Positions 7,103 through 50,907 of a stretch of DNA of 64,000 bases are shown here, piece after piece (positions within the stretch are counted from its first letter, which is position 1; each line of letters starts with the position of its first letter). The notes under the pieces were generated by a model. That model saw nothing but the letters and a program-made list of their open reading frames with translations, did not search any database and had not been told where the DNA came from. The stretch is from a phage. A program made the translations under genes and the position numbers. The DNA lies in NCBI GenBank assembly GCA_019897865.1, contig GCA_019897865.1_4532.1; one strand, given 5' to 3'.

Positions 7103-7120
7103 TCTAACATGTTGTTTTAT

Positions 7121-7140
7121 AAGGGGCTTCTGCCCCTTTA
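7121..7140 (+). terminator. Terminator-like hairpin after DNA polymerase
   Basis: AAGGGGC-TTCT-GCCCCTT hairpin then T-rich TTTAT. Confidence 0.5.
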
Positions 7141-7151
7141 TAGGAGAAGAT

Positions 7152-7343
7152 ATGAGTTACGATTTAGATTATTTTGGTATGCCTTACCTACCAGATGAAT
7201 TTGAAGGTGAAGAAGAATGTGAATGGGACGATGGAGATATCCGTTGTTGGTCTTGTGGTAAAGATATGTCCTATGAACAACATATGCACAATGATGGTTT
7301 CTGCATACATTGTTATAATGAAATTGATCTGGAGGAAGATTAA
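7152..7343 (+). CDS. Small acidic zinc-ribbon protein
   Basis: In-frame ATG at 7152 preceded by GGAG; 63 aa with CWSC...CIHC. The track ORF from 7047 is probably an over-extension across the terminator. Confidence 0.5.
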   Translation: MSYDLDYFGMPYLPDEFEGEEECEWDDGDIRCWSCGKDMSYEQHMHNDGFCIHCYNEIDLEED

Positions 7344-9736: not shown

Positions 9737-12410
9737 AGTCGTAATATTTCAAACCTGTAATGAACTTCGATCCCCAATCCGCACTTGCGGCGGTGAACGT
9801 CAACATCCAAGTTGTAGCTGTACCAGTGAAGACCTCTCGTTGCACAGTACCATCAGTGTGGTAAATGTCCACGCCAGTATGTCCATTCTTAGGAATAGTG
9901 AAGGTAACAGCACTGGTAGTGTCTCGTGCATAAGAACAAACAAATGGTGTCCCCGCCCAAACTGGATTTGTCATATCACCCATCTCAAGCTGTGGAACCC
10001 AAGCAATAAGACCTGCCGTACCATCTCCTGCGAAAGTGTCTGATCCACTTGCATTCAAAGCTATAATCTCATAGGTTATAGATGCTTGTTTGGCAACTGT
10101 CACTTTGTGTAGAATTACACGATACCAACCATTCCCCATATCGATTATGTTTGCATCTGCACCTGTAAATGTTCCAGCTACAAGATCATAAGTCCCTTCG
10201 TTAATCTCATCTCCTGAAGTCAATTTGAGTTTCACTTTAGTGATCCCGTCTGGCTTCAAGAATACGGATGCCGCCCAGTGCTTACCTGCTGTAATATCAG
10301 AAGCTGTATTCACTGCTGATAAAATATGTTGTCCTGAAGTTGTAGAAGGTGTTAACTTGTAAGTGTTAGCCGTAGTTCCAACCGGAGAGTTGATTGTTGA
10401 TGCTGTGACTGTCAAGTTCGTCTTCAACCACGGGGAAGCTGTTGTCAAGTTATTGTTGATAAAGATATGTGTACGGTTGGCTGCTACAACACGTCTACCT
10501 TGTGGAGTTGTACCAACATATTCTAAAGGTGCTACGGGAGCAGAACTCTCTGTAGGTACAAGGATATCTCCAGAAGCCCTGGCATAACGGTTACTCCTAT
10601 TGACCTTTACATCCGTTGGAATAGTTTCTTGCGTCAAATCATAGTCCATCACAATCACCACAGCATTCACTGCGAGATAAGAACTATCTTCGGCAGTTAC
10701 CACACCTTGATAAGTTGCTCTACAACCGATACGACAATCCCCATCAGCAACCGCTGTAATAACGCCTGTAACGGGGTCAACTGTTGCTACCGTAGGGTCA
10801 TTAGAGAAATACTCAACAACCATACCAGGTAAGCTTGCTGCTCCTGTTGGTGTTATTTCTGCTACCATTGTTTGTGTTGTTCCTACATCCATCGCAGATA
10901 AGCTAGGGGTGTAAACGCTCAATGTTGAAGCATATCCTCCAGAGGTATCTGATAAAGTTGTTCCTTCAGCGTTTAAGGCTGTCATACCTGCATCAAAACC
11001 ACCTTCTGCATGGAAAGTCATTAAACCAGTAGATGATATTGTCATGTTTGCAGGGGCAGAAGAAGTGTATTTAATATTGAAAAGTTTACCTCCTTCTGGT
11101 CTAACAGAATGTGTCAACTGTTTAGTTCCACCTACAATACAAATTCCTAAAGAATCTGTAGTTAAGCCAGTTGCCAGAATATCGCCCGTAATCACGGAGC
11201 TTGCTATTGGTGTGAATTTATTATAGTTTAGACCACTATTGAACAGATACGAGGCTTTCCCATCTTTCCAAATACCGGAATAATACATATCTCCATTATA
11301 AACGAAAAAGGTTCCTTGATAACCTAATTGGTTAGTAACATCCATATTCAGCGTATGAACGCTTGTGAGCTTGTTTATATCCCAAGAACCCACTCCTTCA
11401 GGTTTAACTGGTTTTCCCACTTGGAGTGGATCTCCGCTCGCAGAATCATACCCCAAACCTAAGTTTGCAGTGTAGTTCTTACCAATAGCCCACAAGGAAT
11501 TATTGATCCCAACGAAAAAAGAGTGGCGGCTTGGTGGAAACTTCCATGTTGAGAAACCTGCTGCAAAGGTATCCAGTTTAGTGTAGGTTGTTTCTGTATT
11601 AGATCTAACATATAAGTAGTTTACTGTACCCGTGCCACCGGAGGTATCTCCTACAACTATTGTCTGGGAAACTGTATTGATGTAATCTTTGACATACACT
11701 GTTTCAGTAGCGGATATCTTGGCATTGACAAAAGCTGTTGTTGTGTTATTATTACCTGCTAAACCTTTACTAGCTCCACAAACACGCAAGGTTCCCACAT
11801 TGTTGACATAAGAACATTGGTTGTAACCTGCATCAAAAGCAACTGCTGCACTTGTTATCTGACGAGGAGTAGAAACTTCGTTAGTAGTACTTGCACCTAA
11901 ACTACCTACTGTGTTTTGACCTGATCCATAAAGAACACCACTATTCATTAACCAGAGAGTATTGTTATATCCTCCCTTAACCTCTTTAAGATTAGCTAAA
12001 GAGATAGTCCCTGTTATTACAGATGGAAAGCTGGTCCAAGTAGTTACACATGCGTCCGTACCACCTGCTGCTATAGATCCTACCAATCCTGCTGTCAATC
12101 CTGAATATTGCCATCCTCCACTGTTAGTTTTAATAACAAAACAACGATCTGCGGTAAACACATCCGCTACTACAGTAGAAGCTAAGTGGAAATTATTGAA
12201 TCGTGCACTACGAGTTCCATCTGCAATCTCACCAAAAAGGTTTGCGCCTTGAGTAAACAATCTACCATCATTAAGCAAAATTGCTAAACTGCTATTAGAA
12301 TTACCAGCATTATCTGGGTAATCTAAAGTGATTACTTTTTTAACAATACCTGCTGGCAGAGGAACGACACCAGTGCTGGTCATAATAGTAAATATTGGAA
12401 TTGGAAACAT
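9735..12410 (-). CDS. Tail fiber protein with bacterial Ig-like (Big_2-type) domain
   Basis: 891 aa, Gly/Thr/Ser/Asn-rich; segment DPTVATVDPVTGVITAVADGDCRIG... resembles Big_2; last gene of the - strand structural operon. Confidence 0.65.
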   Translation of the reverse strand: MFPIPIFTIMTSTGVVPLPAGIVKKVITLDYPDNAGNSNSSLAILLNDGRLFTQGANLFGEIADGTRSARFNNFHLASTVVADVFTADRCFVIKTNSGGWQYSGLTAGLVGSIAAGGTDACVTTWTSFPSVITGTISLANLKEVKGGYNNTLWLMNSGVLYGSGQNTVGSLGASTTNEVSTPRQITSAAVAFDAGYNQCSYVNNVGTLRVCGASKGLAGNNNTTTAFVNAKISATETVYVKDYINTVSQTIVVGDTSGGTGTVNYLYVRSNTETTYTKLDTFAAGFSTWKFPPSRHSFFVGINNSLWAIGKNYTANLGLGYDSASGDPLQVGKPVKPEGVGSWDINKLTSVHTLNMDVTNQLGYQGTFFVYNGDMYYSGIWKDGKASYLFNSGLNYNKFTPIASSVITGDILATGLTTDSLGICIVGGTKQLTHSVRPEGGKLFNIKYTSSAPANMTISSTGLMTFHAEGGFDAGMTALNAEGTTLSDTSGGYASTLSVYTPSLSAMDVGTTQTMVAEITPTGAASLPGMVVEYFSNDPTVATVDPVTGVITAVADGDCRIGCRATYQGVVTAEDSSYLAVNAVVIVMDYDLTQETIPTDVKVNRSNRYARASGDILVPTESSAPVAPLEYVGTTPQGRRVVAANRTHIFINNNLTTASPWLKTNLTVTASTINSPVGTTANTYKLTPSTTSGQHILSAVNTASDITAGKHWAASVFLKPDGITKVKLKLTSGDEINEGTYDLVAGTFTGADANIIDMGNGWYRVILHKVTVAKQASITYEIIALNASGSDTFAGDGTAGLIAWVPQLEMGDMTNPVWAGTPFVCSYARDTTSAVTFTIPKNGHTGVDIYHTDGTVQREVFTGTATTWMLTFTAASADWGSKFITGLKYYD

Positions 12411-12451: not shown

Positions 12452-14476
12452 TTATCGTGTTACAACAACCATGTCCACGATATCACCCACACCAGGATAC
12501 GTTAATTGCAAAATTGTTACTGCGTTAGCAGTAGTTGCTATTTCTGTATCATTTAGTGCTCCATAAGACGCATCTAGTGTAACCGTGTGTCCCGTTGTAT
12601 CTTGAATCAAATAAATCATTGCTGAAAACGCTTTAGGTTTTGTAGAGCCAGTGACACCAGGCCATGCTCCAACTGTCAGAGCGTCAGTTACTGTAACAAC
12701 ATACATATTGGAAGTTCCAGAAGGAGTCCAAGATGCTCCAGAGTTGGCAGTAGTTGTTTCAAGTTCCATGAAACCTGCTGTAACTCTAGTTGGTGTTATA
12801 GCTTCCGTAGGATCTGATCCGGATATTTCGATCCAATTTCCATCAGACCTACCATACGTCAAGCCGTCTTGAGGGGCTTCTGGTATACTAGGAAGAGTGC
12901 CTATAAGCGTCCACGTAGAAGAATCTGTTTTCTTAAACACTGCTCCAGTGGTAGTATTGAAGGCGTAATCATTGATAACACCGTCTCCTGCGACTGGATT
13001 AGTTGTTGCTACAAACCACTGTGCGCCGTCCTTACCGTTGGTCCCATCAGTACCGTTGGTTCCGTTTGTTCCAGGATCACCCTTATCTCCTTTATCCCCT
13101 TTTTCACCTTTGTCGCCTTTAATACTTCCCATGTCAACAAAAGATGCGGAATTGGTGTCTTGATCGTAGGTATAGATGTAAAGATTACTAGTGTCTTCAG
13201 TTAAATAGGCATCACCGTAGTTATTATAAACAGGGAGAGCTTCACTGTTCGGAACATGACCTTTAGCTGTAATTGATGTTCCTCCAAGACTGCCAACATT
13301 CATCCATTCCGTAGCATCTTGAACCCAAACATACAAATCATTATTAATTTTATATGCATCACCTACTTCTCCAGTAGGAGGAAGTTCAGCTTCGCTGTTC
13401 AGAACCCCGATAATCTCTAAACCTGATCCTGTTGCACCCACTGGTCCTTGTGGACCTAGTTCACCTTGTGGACCTCGCTCTCCTTGATCACCCTTGTCTC
13501 CTTTTGGACCTTTAAGTGAGGCAATAAAATCTACTTCTGTCCCTTCATTACCAGCATCCAGCCAACTTTGATATGCAGATTTCCCTTCATCTCCATCTGT
13601 TCCATCTAGACCGTCTTTTCCTGCCTCGCCTTGTGGACCTTGAGGACCAACAATATTACCCATGTTGACCCAAGCTGTCCCATTAGAGACATAAAGATTA
13701 CCATTGATAGAATAAGCTTGGCTTACGTTTTCAGAGTTAGGTTGTGGTAAGTTACTTGTAGAAGGCAAATCTCCACGATAATCAAAACCGTTGGCGTTAA
13801 CACCAGGTGCTCCCTGTGGCCCTGTAGGACCAACATCGCCTTTATCACCTTTTATAGAGGTAAGGAAATCATAAACAGATCCTGTATTACCATCTGCCAA
13901 CCATACCTCGTAAGCTGATTTACCTTCTGGCCCAAGAGAAGAAATAAGTTTCCAAACAGAACCATCCCAAGCGTAGATTACATCACCTACGATATAACCA
14001 TCCCCTGCAACGTTACCTGTGGATGGTAGTTCACTAGTGCTTGCTAATGATCCTTTAATATTAAGTTGAGCACCAGTATCCCCTTTCAAAGAGGCAAGCC
14101 ACTGTGCTTCTGTTCCAACAAAACCATTATCAAGTGCGATCTGATAAGCCGATTTACCAGCTTCAGGTATTGTTTCCGACAGATCATCAATCTGTTGCTG
14201 CATTGCCGTAAACTTGGCATTGATAATTGCTATATCATCAGCGGTCCCAACACTTTGCCATGCAAGGGAAGAAATACCACCTGTGGTGGCTGGCGTAGAG
14301 TTTGCTGGAACCACTTTAGGAAAAGTTCCTTTCCATTGGTAATAATTCCCTTCTGCTGCTAACAGCAAAACTTCACGGGAATTACGTAATGTAAAACCTG
14401 CCTCAAAGCTGCGACGTTTTCGATAAGTAGCTTCTACCAGATCGGCTATCGCACTATTAGGTCTTGTTAAATTCAT
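12452..14476 (-). CDS. Tail fiber protein with collagen-like G-X-Y triple-helix repeats
   Basis: 674 aa with several G-X-Y runs (GPQGPQGEAGKDGLDGTDG; KGPKGDKGDQGERGPQGELGPQGPVG; KGDKGEKGDKGDKGDPGTNGTNGTDG); N-terminal motif W.G.FPK...STP..TGG shared with two tailspikes. Confidence 0.75.
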   Translation of the reverse strand: MNLTRPNSAIADLVEATYRKRRSFEAGFTLRNSREVLLLAAEGNYYQWKGTFPKVVPANSTPATTGGISSLAWQSVGTADDIAIINAKFTAMQQQIDDLSETIPEAGKSAYQIALDNGFVGTEAQWLASLKGDTGAQLNIKGSLASTSELPSTGNVAGDGYIVGDVIYAWDGSVWKLISSLGPEGKSAYEVWLADGNTGSVYDFLTSIKGDKGDVGPTGPQGAPGVNANGFDYRGDLPSTSNLPQPNSENVSQAYSINGNLYVSNGTAWVNMGNIVGPQGPQGEAGKDGLDGTDGDEGKSAYQSWLDAGNEGTEVDFIASLKGPKGDKGDQGERGPQGELGPQGPVGATGSGLEIIGVLNSEAELPPTGEVGDAYKINNDLYVWVQDATEWMNVGSLGGTSITAKGHVPNSEALPVYNNYGDAYLTEDTSNLYIYTYDQDTNSASFVDMGSIKGDKGEKGDKGDKGDPGTNGTNGTDGTNGKDGAQWFVATTNPVAGDGVINDYAFNTTTGAVFKKTDSSTWTLIGTLPSIPEAPQDGLTYGRSDGNWIEISGSDPTEAITPTRVTAGFMELETTTANSGASWTPSGTSNMYVVTVTDALTVGAWPGVTGSTKPKAFSAMIYLIQDTTGHTVTLDASYGALNDTEIATTANAVTILQLTYPGVGDIVDMVVVTR

Positions 14477-49162: not shown

Positions 49163-49234
49163 AATAAAATCCTCCTAAACTTTATCTTAACATATAAAAA
49201 ATAATAAGTCAAGTTTTATTCAATAGATAGCAAA

Positions 49235-49260
49235 AAGCCTCCAATAAGGAGGCCAATAAA
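49235..49260 (-). terminator. Rho-independent terminator at the end of the tRNA array
   Basis: GCCTCC-TTATT-GGAGGC hairpin followed on the - strand by TTTTTGC. Confidence 0.55.
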
Positions 49261-49369
49261 TACTGTTAATTTGAAATGCTTTATTATGATTGTGCGTTAA
49301 GGAGTCGCACCCCTCCATCTTAGAAGGAACCAGGCAAGGTCTTCAAAGATACCACTGGCAAGCGATATT

Positions 49370-49448
49370 TGGAGGCGGGAATTGGATTTGAACCAATGAT
49401 CTCCAGCATATGAAACTGGCGAGGACGACCAAACTCCTCTATCCCGCT
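49370..49448 (-). tRNA. tRNA-Met (anticodon CAT); initiator/elongator/Ile-lysidine not resolved
   Basis: Hand-folded cloverleaf: T-arm ATTGG-TTCAAAT-CCAAT, anticodon loop TTCATAT, encoded CCA; A1-C72 mismatch at acceptor top. Confidence 0.6.
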
Positions 49449-50250: not shown

Positions 50251-50325
50251 TGGTGCTCCCACTCTGAATCGAACAGAGATCCACGGATTACAAAACCGTT
50301 GTAATAGCCATTATACTATAGGAGC
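50251..50325 (-). tRNA. tRNA-Thr (anticodon TGT)
   Basis: Acceptor GCTCCTA/TGGGAGC, anticodon loop TTTGTAA, T-arm CTCTG-TTCGATT-CAGAG, A73, CCA; loop-closing pair mismatched. Confidence 0.6.
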
Positions 50326-50331
50326 AAAGCT

Positions 50332-50408
50332 GGGACTCGGCAGGATTCGATACCTGCAATTCCAGAAGCCTCTTGGCGACTGGGGGTTTACCTTAACTCT
50401 ACAAGTCC
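50332..50408 (-). ncRNA. tRNA-like element with extended central hairpin in place of the anticodon arm
   Basis: Good acceptor (GGACTTG/CGAGTCC) and T-arm-like GCAGG...CCTGC (8-nt loop), but middle forms CCAGTCGCC-AAGA-GGCTTCTGG; no CCA. Confidence 0.3.
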
Positions 50409-50415
50409 ATAATTC

Positions 50416-50501
50416 TGGCGATGAGTATAGGATTTGAACCTATATCGTTCTTTCGAACACGGATTAACAGTCCGCCGCTTAAACCATTCAGCCAACTCAT
50501 C
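50416..50501 (-). tRNA. Class II (long variable arm) tRNA with anticodon GTT (Asn codons)
   Basis: 86 nt: acceptor GATGAGT/ACTCATC, 3-bp D stem, anticodon stem GCGGA/TCCGT with loop CTGTTAA, variable arm GTTC-GAAA-GAAC, T-arm ATAGG-TTCAAAT-CCTAT, G73, CCA. Confidence 0.55.
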
Positions 50502-50507
50502 TTAATT

Positions 50508-50595
50508 TGGTGGTGAGTGATGGAGTCGAACCACCCGAATCGCAATGATAACAGATTTACAGTCTGCCCCGCTACCCCTACGGAATTAACTCACC
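50508..50595 (-). tRNA. tRNA-Tyr (anticodon GTA), class II
   Basis: 88 nt: acceptor GGTGAGT/ACTCACC, anticodon stem GCAGA/TCTGT with loop CTGTAAA, long variable region, T-arm GGTGG-TTCGACT-CCATC, A73, CCA. Confidence 0.65.
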
Positions 50596-50725: not shown

Positions 50726-50811
50726 TGGCGGTAGATGTAGGACTCGAACCTACACGCCGTTTCCGACTACAGTTTAGCAAACTGTCGTGGCTACCATTTC
50801 ACCAATCTACC
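50726..50811 (-). tRNA. tRNA-Ser (anticodon GCT), class II
   Basis: 86 nt: acceptor GGTAGAT/ATCTACC, anticodon stem ACAGT/ACTGT with loop TTGCTAA, variable arm GTCG-GAAA-CGGC, T-arm GTAGG-TTCGAGT-CCTAC, G73, CCA. Confidence 0.7.
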
Positions 50812-50816
50812 TAATC

Positions 50817-50907
50817 TGGCGGAAGGAGGGAGAGTCGAACTCCCAAGGCTCTTTCAAGCTCGGCGGTTTTCAAGACCGTTTTCGTCGCCACGTCGATTTG
50901 CCCTTCC
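50817..50907 (-). tRNA. tRNA-Ser (anticodon TGA), class II
   Basis: About 91 nt: acceptor GGAAGGG/TCCTTCC, anticodon loop CTTGAAA, variable arm GCTT-GAAA-GAGC, T-arm GGGAG-TTCGACT-CTCCC, G73, CCA. Confidence 0.65.

Follow-up and report, generated by a model that had tools for sequence, protein, structure and literature searches.

The window analysed here, the whole 64,000-nucleotide stretch of DNA from a phAPEC8-like phage of E. coli, holds a real phage tRNA-Asn gene whose product carries a long variable arm. On balance, this gene probably encodes an AsnRS-charged tRNA-Asn of a widespread, mostly viral lineage, in which a selected hairpin would serve as a shield against nucleases. Textbooks confine the long-arm (class II) tRNAs of bacteria to Leu, Ser, Tyr and Sec. 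The gene, its parts and the neighbouring tRNA genes are listed below.

50416-50501, minus strand: tRNA-Asn(GUU), complete, 86 nt, class II, CCA encoded (ARAGORN, Rfam RF00005, minimum-free-energy fold)
50495-50501, minus strand: acceptor 5' strand GAUGAGU (positions 1-7), with G1-C72 and A2-U71, where tRNA-Ser has G2-C71
50477-50492, minus strand: D arm of 3 bp (G10-C25, C11-G24, U12-A23) with G13.A22 and loop AAUGGUUU
50459-50475, minus strand: anticodon arm GCGGA-CUGUUAA-UCCGU, anticodon GUU at 50466-50468
50444-50458, minus strand: long variable arm, a GUUC/GAAC 4-bp stem from position 44 with a GAAA tetraloop, then unpaired GAU
50427-50443, minus strand: T arm AUAGG-UUCAAAU-CCUAU, standard 5-bp stem and 7-nt loop
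50416-50426, minus strand: acceptor 3' strand ACUCAUC (50420-50426), discriminator G73 (50419) and CCA (50416-50418)
50508-50595, minus strand: tRNA-Tyr(GUA), 88 nt with CCA and A73, lying 6 nt upstream of the Asn gene (Rfam, 39 bits)
50251-50325, minus strand: tRNA-Thr(UGU), 75 nt, class I (ARAGORN)
50726-50811, minus strand: tRNA-Ser(GCU), 86 nt, G1-C72/G2-C71/G73 (ARAGORN, Rfam)

The elements that the first-pass annotation had folded by hand (86 nt, a 3-bp D stem, a 15-nt arm with a GAAA loop, G73 and CCA) are all present in the sequence and in the ARAGORN, Rfam and RNAfold results. Its anticodon loop CUGUUAA, with anticodon GUU, is seen in the sequence and agrees with ARAGORN, which it had proposed as a check and which returns the same fold class and anticodon, a tRNA-Asn(gtt) of 86 nt at 50416-50501 on the minus strand. 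With the whole window searched, Rfam RF00005 scores 62 bits (E=4.8e-11) against a curated gathering threshold of 29 bits; model positions 1-71 are matched full-length, and 12 additional nt are aligned as an insertion in the variable region. This region, GUUC-GAAA-GAAC-GAU, forms a 15-nt stem-loop between the anticodon and T arms and lies within the class II range (at least 10 nt). The minimum-free-energy structure given by RNAfold is a cloverleaf with a fourth hairpin; the RNAfold z-score of -1.7 tells nothing, as generally happens with a single tRNA, and carried no weight. In public records of 99%-identical phages, the same gene is labelled tRNA-Asn.

The phage tRNA almost certainly still inserts asparagine and is probably charged by the host AsnRS, because it combines the GUU anticodon, G73 and a host-identical anticodon arm. 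The published E. coli AsnRS identity set consists of G34-U35-U36 and G73, and it is complete in the window gene. Its anticodon arm is identical to that of E. coli tRNA-Asn (asnT/U/V/W) at 17/17 positions, the E. coli sequence having been confirmed, and the two further share G73, CCA, the codons read and the identity set. This comparison was made with the E. coli tRNA-Asn sequence itself as query; the phage gene, when compared by BLAST with E. coli genomes, had a chance match in yobD only. Otherwise the host tRNA is a class I molecule of 76 nt: its variable loop has 5 nt, its D stem 4 bp and its acceptor end U1-A72/C2-G71, whereas the window gene has an arm of 15 nt, 3 bp in the D stem and G1-C72/A2-U71. 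In addition, rescue from the PARIS defence system supports the view that the homologue from phage T5 behaves as a working tRNA-Asn in vivo. Identity set, host-identical anticodon arm and the behaviour of the T5 homologue together bear out the suggestion, made from the sequence at the outset, of an unusual tRNA-Asn.

A likeness to the adjacent tRNA genes had been proposed as well. Overall length and the GAAA loop are indeed shared with tRNA-Ser(GCU), but the arm of the latter, A-GUCG-GAAA-CGGC-GU, has the register 1+4bp+2 as against 0+4bp+3 in the Asn gene, and its pair 2:71 is G-C rather than A-U. The neighbouring tRNA-Tyr(GUA), which ARAGORN finds only with a relaxed threshold and which is annotated as tRNA-Tyr in WPEC4, has the anticodon arm GCAGA-CUGUAAA-UCUGU, just as described; judged by the sequences, however, the 17/17 match to E. 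coli tRNA-Asn is more telling than the match to the phage tRNA-Tyr. Origin from the adjacent tRNA-Ser or tRNA-Tyr was also considered, and comparison of the D and T arms gives no such signal. These arms match best those of other long-arm Asn genes (95% identity in the D arm) and of the T5-like class I tRNA-Cys, and are without special likeness to Ser or Tyr, mean D-arm identity being 0.61 for class I Asn, 0.51 for Ser and 0.42 for Tyr. Between the Tyr and Asn genes of the window, 6/7 positions of the acceptor strand agree, a likeness treated as local or coincidental because it is absent in phage alia and T5.

The first-pass annotation treated the gene as a one-off oddity; in fact it belongs to a large phage lineage. 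Well over 500 sequenced genomes of T5-like, T4-like and rV5/phAPEC8-like phages carry homologous long-arm tRNA-Asn genes, the long form (83-86 nt) being found in Stephanstirmvirinae, in Demerecviridae (including T5) and in T4-like Klebsiella/Enterobacter phages. The family comprises 93 distinct versions, mostly from viral metagenome contigs. Because the pattern used to survey the metagenomes prescribed part of the anticodon arm, the conservation of this arm in the family at large does not count as independent support. The species genomes of bacteria and archaea, 185,579 in number, yielded only about 17 long-arm tRNA-Asn. The same phage clusters carry the long arm on Thr(UGU), Cys, Trp, Glu, Ile and Lys tRNAs also; some phages possess short and long versions of one anticodon side by side, and the Leu tRNAs of T5 have lost the long arm. 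Searches of the accessible full-text literature found no description of long-arm tRNA-Asn or of long-arm class I phage tRNAs, though the T5 tRNA sequencing papers of the 1980s may contain one.

The extra hairpin is a selected structural element, because its stem covaries and is usually GNRA-capped. In the arm stem, 4/4 pairs have compensatory double changes with 100% pairing, and across all helices of the family alignment 99.4% of cells are paired and 17/24 pairs have double changes, against 33-47% pairing in slid controls for both; the acceptor stem (GAUGAGU/ACUCAUC, 7 bp) covaries in 7/7 pairs. As this first alignment had been picked by arm architecture, which favours pairing, a shuffle test without sequence selection was added. 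Among the unselected sequences, a hairpin of at least 3 bp is present in 87% versus 48% when shuffled, and a GNRA loop in 53% versus 0.5%, an enrichment of about 100-fold.

A role in defence evasion is the leading hypothesis for this hairpin, by which the arm may shield the tRNA from nucleases. The model proposes that a functional phage tRNA-Asn, charged with Asn by the host AsnRS, would read AAC/AAU for the Asn-rich phage proteome, while the hairpin would reshape the tRNA body such that nucleases killing host tRNA-Asn, for example AriB of PARIS, would no longer fit, and the anticodon arm would stay untouched, serving charging and modification. As described in the PARIS study, AriB cleaves the anticodon stem of E. 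coli tRNA-Asn(GUU) between positions 40 and 41 (40|41), and it depends on further contacts away from this site, among them U16-U17 of the D loop; co-expressed T5 tRNA-Lys, -Thr and -Asn rescue growth and phage infection from PARIS (PMC12409363). The same study reports that Bas34, a T5 relative with its own tRNA-Asn, still needed that of T5, and that tRNA-Asn is only a secondary AriB target (PMC12409363). The window tRNA thus shares its anticodon with a host tRNA that is cleaved in defence, the first mark of an anti-defence tRNA. Its equivalent of the cut (C40|C41) lies at 50462|50461, and both it and T5 tRNA-Asn keep U36AAUC|C41. T5 tRNA-Thr(UGU) keeps U36AAUC|A41, and like T5 tRNA-Asn it has a GNRA-capped long arm; the class I tRNA-Thr(UGU) of the window reads U36AAUC|C41, with C41 versus A41 in the E. 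coli target.

T5 tRNA-Asn(GUU) is the only family member with functional data, namely the PARIS rescue in combination with T5 tRNA-Lys and -Thr (PMC12409363). It is homologous to the window gene and has the same anticodon, G73 and a GAAA-capped hairpin from position 44 followed by 3 unpaired nt, but it is 83 nt long with a 3-bp arm stem, versus 86 nt and 4 bp. The acceptor strand is GGGUCGU (G2-C71) in T5 versus GAUGAGU (A2-U71), pair 28:42 is U-A versus C-G, and the D loop has C16 versus U16. The consulted text of the PARIS/AriB study leaves the T5 long arm unmentioned, with zero uses of the word "variable", and reports no cleavage resistance for a phage tRNA-Asn (Belukhina et al., 2025; PMC12409363). 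Since pair 28:42 and the D-loop residue C16 also set T5 tRNA-Asn apart from its E. coli counterpart, any escape need not be due to the arm. Further, PARIS is not a sufficient explanation for a lineage that spans phages of very different hosts. AsnRS, like other class II synthetases, approaches the tRNA from the variable-region side, and the arm could therefore lower charging efficiency.

A precedent is the tRNA-Tyr of the T5-like phage SP15, which evades PtuAB of Retron-Eco7 via a longer variable loop; arm deletion or a swap for the host arm abolishes the escape (PMC12673091; PMC11555353). Common to that case and to the proposal made here is an altered variable arm that defeats a tRNA-cutting defence. 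However, tRNA-Tyr is already class II in bacteria and its arm was lengthened, whereas the Asn arm is newly created, and the cut made by PtuAB falls within the variable loop (U47|C48), that of AriB in the anticodon stem; arm-based escape is experimental for SP15 tRNA-Tyr and is here proposed by analogy for tRNA-Asn. Other nucleases were considered as the arm's target and set aside. Colicin E5-type nucleases cut Q34-containing tRNAs, Asn included, and read the anticodon loop only, so that an arm would be of no help. Bacterial Schlafens, whose eukaryotic relative SLFN11 prefers long-arm tRNAs according to the passages available, have targets that include tRNA-Lys(UUU), tRNA-Met(CAU) and T5 tRNA-Ala(UGC), and the arm is unmentioned in those passages.

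An alternate scenario, raised in the first-pass annotation, is missense recoding, in which SerRS, being blind to the anticodon and reading arm and G73, would place partial Ser at AAC/AAU, or TyrRS would place Tyr. A long variable arm, G73, G1-C72 and C11-G24 are indeed present, the phage's own tRNA-Ser(GCU) likewise has just a 4-bp GAAA-capped arm, G1-C72, G2-C71 and G73 are combined in 15/93 family members (the T5 type among them), and mischarged long-arm tRNAs have precedents in the nev-tRNAs and allo-tRNAs. [quoted passage not shown] The geometry is nearer to that of tRNA-Tyr, but of A73 and U35, the TyrRS elements, only U35 is present, and the G found at position 73 is listed (for tRNA-Ser) as an antideterminant against TyrRS. 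Within the family, G73 is found in 84/92 members, the Asn-type U1-A72/C2-G71 acceptor end in 37/93 and C2-G71, listed as an anti-SerRS element, in 41/93. The discriminator of other long-arm phage tRNAs follows the anticodon (Cys U73 in 7/7, Trp G73 in 4/4), unlike that of the nev-tRNAs with their Leu A73, and a host-identical anticodon arm would be pointless in a SerRS substrate. In addition, the over-expressed T5 homologue rescues growth, with no poisoning, in the passages of the PARIS study that describe it (PMC12409363). Low-level misserylation of the window tRNA may occur, but recoding as its function is scarcely credible. The comparison of identity elements that had been called for finds the Asn set complete and both Ser G2-C71 and Tyr A73 missing, and the recoding proposal is not supported, in view of A2-U71, an arm register unlike that usual in phage tRNA-Ser, the anti-TyrRS G73 and the Asn-type bodies of the family. 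The two precedents differ as well. Nematode nev-tRNAs (Gly/Ile anticodons) share with the window gene a long arm and the anticodon of a class I family, but they keep Leu determinants, with A73 in 115/115 genes, and are leucylated, weakly expressed and matched to rare codons (PMC3333845). The phage tRNA, unlike them, has the discriminator and anticodon arm of its own amino acid, Asn, rather than the identity of a class II parent, and serves abundant codons. Allo-tRNAs are likewise non-canonical, with long arms, and occur in bacteria and phage tRNA clusters, some having an anticodon mismatched to their Ser or Ala identity, but their acceptor/T branch is 8/4 or 9/3 and their D arm resembles that of tRNA-Sec (PMC5389517), as against the 7-bp acceptor, 5-bp T stem and ordinary D arm found here.

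The tRNA could also be a plain supply tRNA, its arm a tolerated historical insertion and the hairpin kept because an unstructured insert would misfold. Asn codons number 60 per 1000 in the window ORFs, at a window GC of 39%, and since AsnRS identity comprises the anticodon and G73, the arm may be invisible to AsnRS. E. coli LeuRS ignores the long arm, and this blindness together with the armless T5 Leu tRNAs indicates that arm class can drift when the synthetase does not read the arm. However, the arm has been kept among phages of the T5, T4 and phAPEC8 types and across metagenomic viruses of great diversity, its stem covaries under strongly enriched GNRA caps, cellular genomes almost entirely lack the form, and short and long copies of one anticodon in some phages are hard to square with neutrality; we consider this reading unlikely, if worth keeping in view. 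That the RNA acts mainly as a decoy, a competitive inhibitor of a tRNA nuclease or other host factor rather than a translating tRNA, appears highly improbable. Belukhina et al. do raise, in the passages available, competition of over-expressed viral tRNAs with host tRNAs for AriB (PMC12409363), and the anticodon arm, cut-site sequence included, reproduces the host target exactly; against this, the features of a translating tRNA are all present (7/5 acceptor/T branch, canonical T loop, G73, CCA and Asn identity), the acceptor and T stems covary like those of working tRNAs, and the heavy use of Asn codons provides an obvious decoding job. Quite improbable, too, is a self-marking function, by which the arm would tell phage from host tRNA for machinery other than nucleases, for example in cluster processing, in dodging host variable-loop modification or in sparing from phage-induced host tRNA degradation. 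The virus-associated arm on Thr, Cys, Trp, Glu, Ile and Lys tRNAs of the same clusters, and the spacing of merely a few nt between cluster genes in the window, are consistent with such a mark; but in an annotated relative of 99% identity no tRNA-processing or -modifying gene adjoins the cluster, the arm is missing from most tRNAs of the same clusters, and a search for experimental precedent of self-marking found none.

The shield model, in which the hairpin may keep nucleases from the phage tRNA-Asn, suggests a broader reading, which we advance tentatively: phages may re-class tRNAs for immune evasion, either by adding a GNRA-capped arm or by deleting a canonical one, as in T5 tRNA-Leu. Such re-classing, equally tentative in its limits, would be restricted to tRNAs whose synthetase does not read the variable region, would leave the anticodon arm as in the host so that charging and modification continue, and would evade nucleases that read the tRNA body, AriB of PARIS among them. 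If this holds, the window gene would be one case of a general, so far undescribed counter-defence principle, and side-by-side short and long copies would represent bet-hedging against different nucleases. In practice, long-arm class I tRNA genes can be mishandled by annotation pipelines and in tRNA-seq mapping, and a long arm tolerated by AsnRS would help the engineering of orthogonal or nuclease-resistant tRNAs. Published explanations of escape look mainly to point changes in the loop or stem of the anticodon arm; T5 tRNA-Asn and tRNA-Thr(UGU), which keep the AriB cut-site sequence and add an arm, provide a concrete structural hypothesis. The long-arm tRNA-Asn is the normal form in several major enterobacterial phage groups, T5 included, and in many uncultured viruses, and it bears on why phages carry tRNAs and how such tRNAs escape tRNA-cutting immunity.

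The gene at 50416-50501 is, judged by its sequence and fold, a tRNA of class II shape that its identity elements mark as tRNA-Asn. ARAGORN calls it tRNA-Asn(gtt) of 86 nt, which bears out the GUU (Asn) anticodon read in the first-pass annotation, and the Rfam tRNA model matches it over its full length at 62 bits (gathering threshold 29 bits; E=4.8e-11 over the whole window), the extra nucleotides being placed as an insertion in the variable region. The minimum free energy fold adds a fourth hairpin to the cloverleaf; the 3-bp D stem, the 15-nt variable region with its GAAA tetraloop, G73, the encoded CCA and the CUGUUAA anticodon loop, as described earlier from a hand fold, are all present. 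The window belongs to a phAPEC8-like E. coli myovirus (Phapecoctavirus, Stephanstirmvirinae) whose tRNA cluster is 99% identical to those of phages nieznany, tuntematon and anhysbys, and public records already annotate the gene as tRNA-Asn. The cluster comprises at least 11 tRNA genes on the minus strand, with tRNA-Tyr(GUA) 6 nt upstream of the tRNA-Asn gene and tRNA-Thr(UGU) ~90 nt downstream; no tRNA-related enzyme lies near it, the flanking ORFs encoding small hypothetical proteins. Features in and beside the cluster are:

49229-49283, minus strand: RyhB-like match, Rfam 27.5 bits (threshold 55), E=0.02
49370-49448, minus strand: tRNA-Met(CAU), 79 nt, odd anticodon loop UUCAUAU, discriminator U, enlarged D arm
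50251-50325, minus strand: tRNA-Thr(UGU), class I, anticodon stem U36AAUC/C41 (slash, cut site), U31.U39 mismatch
50332-50408, minus strand: weak tRNA-like sequence, 77 nt, ARAGORN Leu(CAA) at the 85% threshold only
50416-50501, minus strand: tRNA-Asn(GUU), 86 nt, sequence GAUGAGUUGGCUGAAUGGUUUAAGCGGCGGACUGUUAAUCCGUGUUCGAAAGAACGAUAUAGGUUCAAAUCCUAUACUCAUCGCCA
50508-50595, minus strand: tRNA-Tyr(GUA), Rfam only 39 bits, missed by ARAGORN defaults
50817-50906, minus strand: tRNA-Ser(UGA)-like, 90 nt, relaxed ARAGORN settings only

The tRNA-Tyr(GUA) gene carries a 3-nt insertion, AUU, between position 9 and the D stem, and its counterpart is 'tRNA-Pseudo-GTA' in one public record and tRNA-Tyr in others. 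Its acceptor 5' strand (50589-50595, GGUGAGU) differs by one mismatch from that of tRNA-Asn (50495-50501, GAUGAGU; both minus strand); neither in phage alia nor in T5 do the two genes share this likeness, which may therefore be due to local gene conversion or to chance. The tRNA-Ser(UGA)-like sequence gives a sub-threshold match to the Rfam tRNA-Sec model (37.4 bits; threshold 47) and is left without annotation in phage WPEC4, which is 99% identical; at the corresponding place in its cluster, phage alia has a tRNA-Ser(UGA) of 90 nt. The weak tRNA-like sequence, which lies in the 90-nt Asn-Thr spacer, has a good acceptor stem and, in its T arm, an unusual loop, UAUCGAA; it has no Rfam match even at E<1 and may be a decayed tRNA gene. 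The tRNA-Thr(UGU) gene has C41 where the E. coli target of the tRNA-cutting defence nuclease PARIS AriB has A41; the equivalent A41-to-C change in tRNA-Lys strongly reduces AriB cleavage (PMC12409363). The counterpart of tRNA-Met(CAU) is 'tRNA-Pseudo-CAT' in one public record, and phage alia has a near-identical gene. The RyhB-like match, just downstream of the cluster, is most likely due to chance.

The first-pass annotation had offered two readings of the long arm, an unusual tRNA-Asn or a missense tRNA recoding Asn to Ser or Tyr, and it is the former that is supported. Published asparagine identity in E. coli consists of the three anticodon bases and G73; the gene has both, and its anticodon arm, GCGGA-CUGUUAA-UCCGU, is identical throughout to that of E. 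coli tRNA-Asn, a reference sequence confirmed in 5,425 genomes. Serine identity is argued against by pair 2:71, which is A2-U71 and not G2-C71, and by arm geometry: phage tRNA-Ser arms have 4-7 bp, mostly with one unpaired base per side, and start GGA in 60 of 74 cases, whereas arms in the long-arm tRNA-Asn family (93 distinct sequences related in architecture to the window gene) have shorter stems, of 3-4 bp, mostly followed on the 3' side by 3-4 unpaired bases. Tyrosine identity is argued against by G73, despite an arm geometry close to that of phage tRNA-Tyr; G73 figures among the listed antideterminants against TyrRS, and tRNA-Tyr requires A73. The rest of the tRNA, compared without its anticodon and variable arms, bears no particular resemblance to tRNA-Ser or tRNA-Tyr. 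Of the 93 listed long-arm members, 37 have the same U1-A72/C2-G71 end as bacterial tRNA-Asn and 41 have C2-G71, listed as an anti-SerRS element, while only 15 combine G1-C72, G2-C71 and G73. In other long-arm phage tRNAs the discriminator agrees with the anticodon (U73 in 7/7 for Cys, G73 in 4/4 for Trp, A73 in 67/67 for Leu), whereas nematode nev-tRNAs retain that of Leu and are mischarged (PMC3333845). By the test that defines the latter the window gene is not of their type, and it is not an allo-tRNA, having neither the 8/4 nor the 9/3 branch (PMC5389517). Identity rules and comparative data thus point to a genuine tRNA-Asn, which is very probably charged by AsnRS and decodes Asn. A plain supply role is also real: window ORFs with 150 codons or more have 60 Asn codons per 1000, evenly split between AAT and AAC.

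Selection acts on the long variable arm. In an alignment of 20 sequences, 99.4% of cells in the cloverleaf and arm helix are paired, against 33-47% with partners slid, and each of the four arm pairs has double changes that compensate, with 100% pairing. Because this alignment was picked by arm architecture, all 93 listed sequences were tested without selection: an arm hairpin of at least 3 bp is present in 87%, against 48% when the arms are shuffled (no more than 62% in any of 500 shuffles), and a GNRA tetraloop cap in 53%, against 0.5%, with 42 different arm stem strands. Homologous tRNA-Asn(GUU) genes of 83-86 nt occur in Justusliebigvirus (phage alia), T5-like Epseptimavirus and Tequintavirus (T5 itself), Proteus Novosibvirus (M4H10_20) and T4-like Klebsiella/Enterobacter phages (Roth01); that of Kuttervirus is ordinary, at 75 nt. 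By BLAST, the T5-type gene is present in 280 records, a T4-like query is at least 80% covered in 545, T5-like phages among them, and the window gene is covered to that extent in 226. A survey pattern of Asn anticodon arm, long spacer and T arm, designed to match nothing else, found more than 120 stretches in viral contigs, among the matches listed, and 64 in 185,579 bacterial and archaeal species (one genome per species); viruses, then, commonly carry the long-arm form and cells rarely do. ARAGORN on the pattern loci gave at least 93 distinct sequences among the matches listed, ~17 of the 93 from cellular assemblies, some within dense tRNA arrays. One such array, of 21 tRNA genes in a Flavobacteriales MAG (L147, 4061-7611), holds long-arm Lys(UUU) of 90 nt, Ile(UAU) of 93 nt, Glu(UUC) of 89 nt and Asn of 83 nt beside a normal 76-nt Asn, and is likely to be a tRNA array of phage or mobile character; a Saprospiraceae MAG (L130) carries long-arm Asn and Lys.

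The same phage loci also have long arms on tRNAs for Cys(GCA), Thr(UGU), Trp(CCA), Glu(UUC), Ile and Lys. Two viral contigs (L053, 3841-4716 and 12741-13241; L059, 209-1498) contain adjacent short/long pairs with the same anticodon, for example Asn (72/89 nt), Cys (75/89), Pro (76/87), Asp (73/90), Thr(UGU) (74/85) and Ile(GAU) (75/86), which looks like deliberate structural duplication of isoacceptors. In phage T5_ev212 (L191), the relevant genes are:

7120-7196: tRNA-Leu(UAA), 77 nt, 5-nt variable loop, A73
11289-11365: tRNA-Leu(UAG), 77 nt, 5-nt variable loop, A73
13026-13112: tRNA-Thr(UGU), 87 nt, GUAA-capped variable arm A-GGA-GUAA-UCC-CGUU

The long arm canonical for tRNA-Leu is gone from both T5 genes, which fits the fact that E. 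coli LeuRS does not require it, and 61 of 136 ARAGORN tRNA-Leu calls across all fetched loci are below 81 nt. With arms gained (e.g., Asn, Cys, Thr) and lost (T5 Leu), phage tRNAs therefore switch variable-arm class both ways, apparently wherever the synthetase permits.

Cells and phages are rescued from PARIS when T5 tRNA-Lys, tRNA-Thr and tRNA-Asn are expressed together (Belukhina et al., PMC12409363), and the sole tRNA-Asn of T5 is the 83-nt long-arm form; a member of the lineage therefore works in vivo within an anti-defence tRNA set, and that its over-expression helps rather than harms cells argues against large-scale mistranslation. Given the arm of T5 tRNA-Thr(UGU), the two T5 tRNAs that act with tRNA-Lys to neutralise PARIS are both of the long-arm form, each with a short GNRA-capped arm starting 3-4 nucleotides 3' of the cut. 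Belukhina et al. explain escape by substitutions in or near the cut site, and their article text does not mention the variable region (PMC12409363). However, U36AAUC/C41 is kept by both the window gene and T5 tRNA-Asn, and T5 tRNA-Thr(UGU) keeps U36AAUC/A41, the sequence AriB cuts in E. coli tRNA-Thr and tRNA-Lys; these kept sequences suggest an explanation other than cut-site substitution. The cut-site sequence by itself is insufficient for AriB cleavage, and U16-U17 of the D loop are read by the second AriB monomer (PMC12409363), so that AriB spans the face where the long arm would project.

The best explanation is that the arm may be a change of shape that would block tRNA nucleases that read the body, while the anticodon arm would be left intact for AsnRS and the anticodon-loop modification enzymes. 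That evasion of tRNA-targeting defence is the main role of the arm we hold tentatively, at somewhat under an even chance. Retron-Eco7 PtuAB cuts the variable loop of E. coli tRNA-Tyr, and the tRNA-Tyr of T5-like phage SP15 escapes it, an effect abolished when its longer variable loop is deleted or swapped (PMC12673091; PMC11555353); T5 tRNA-Asn and SP15 tRNA-Tyr are the nearest functional analogues of the window gene. Full-text searches and targeted reading of papers found no description of a long-arm tRNA-Asn; the gene is already annotated, and its architecture, spread and the resulting hypothesis appear new. As the lineage occurs in phages of many hosts, the pressure, if the arm is indeed a shield, would come from a class of nucleases and not from PARIS alone.
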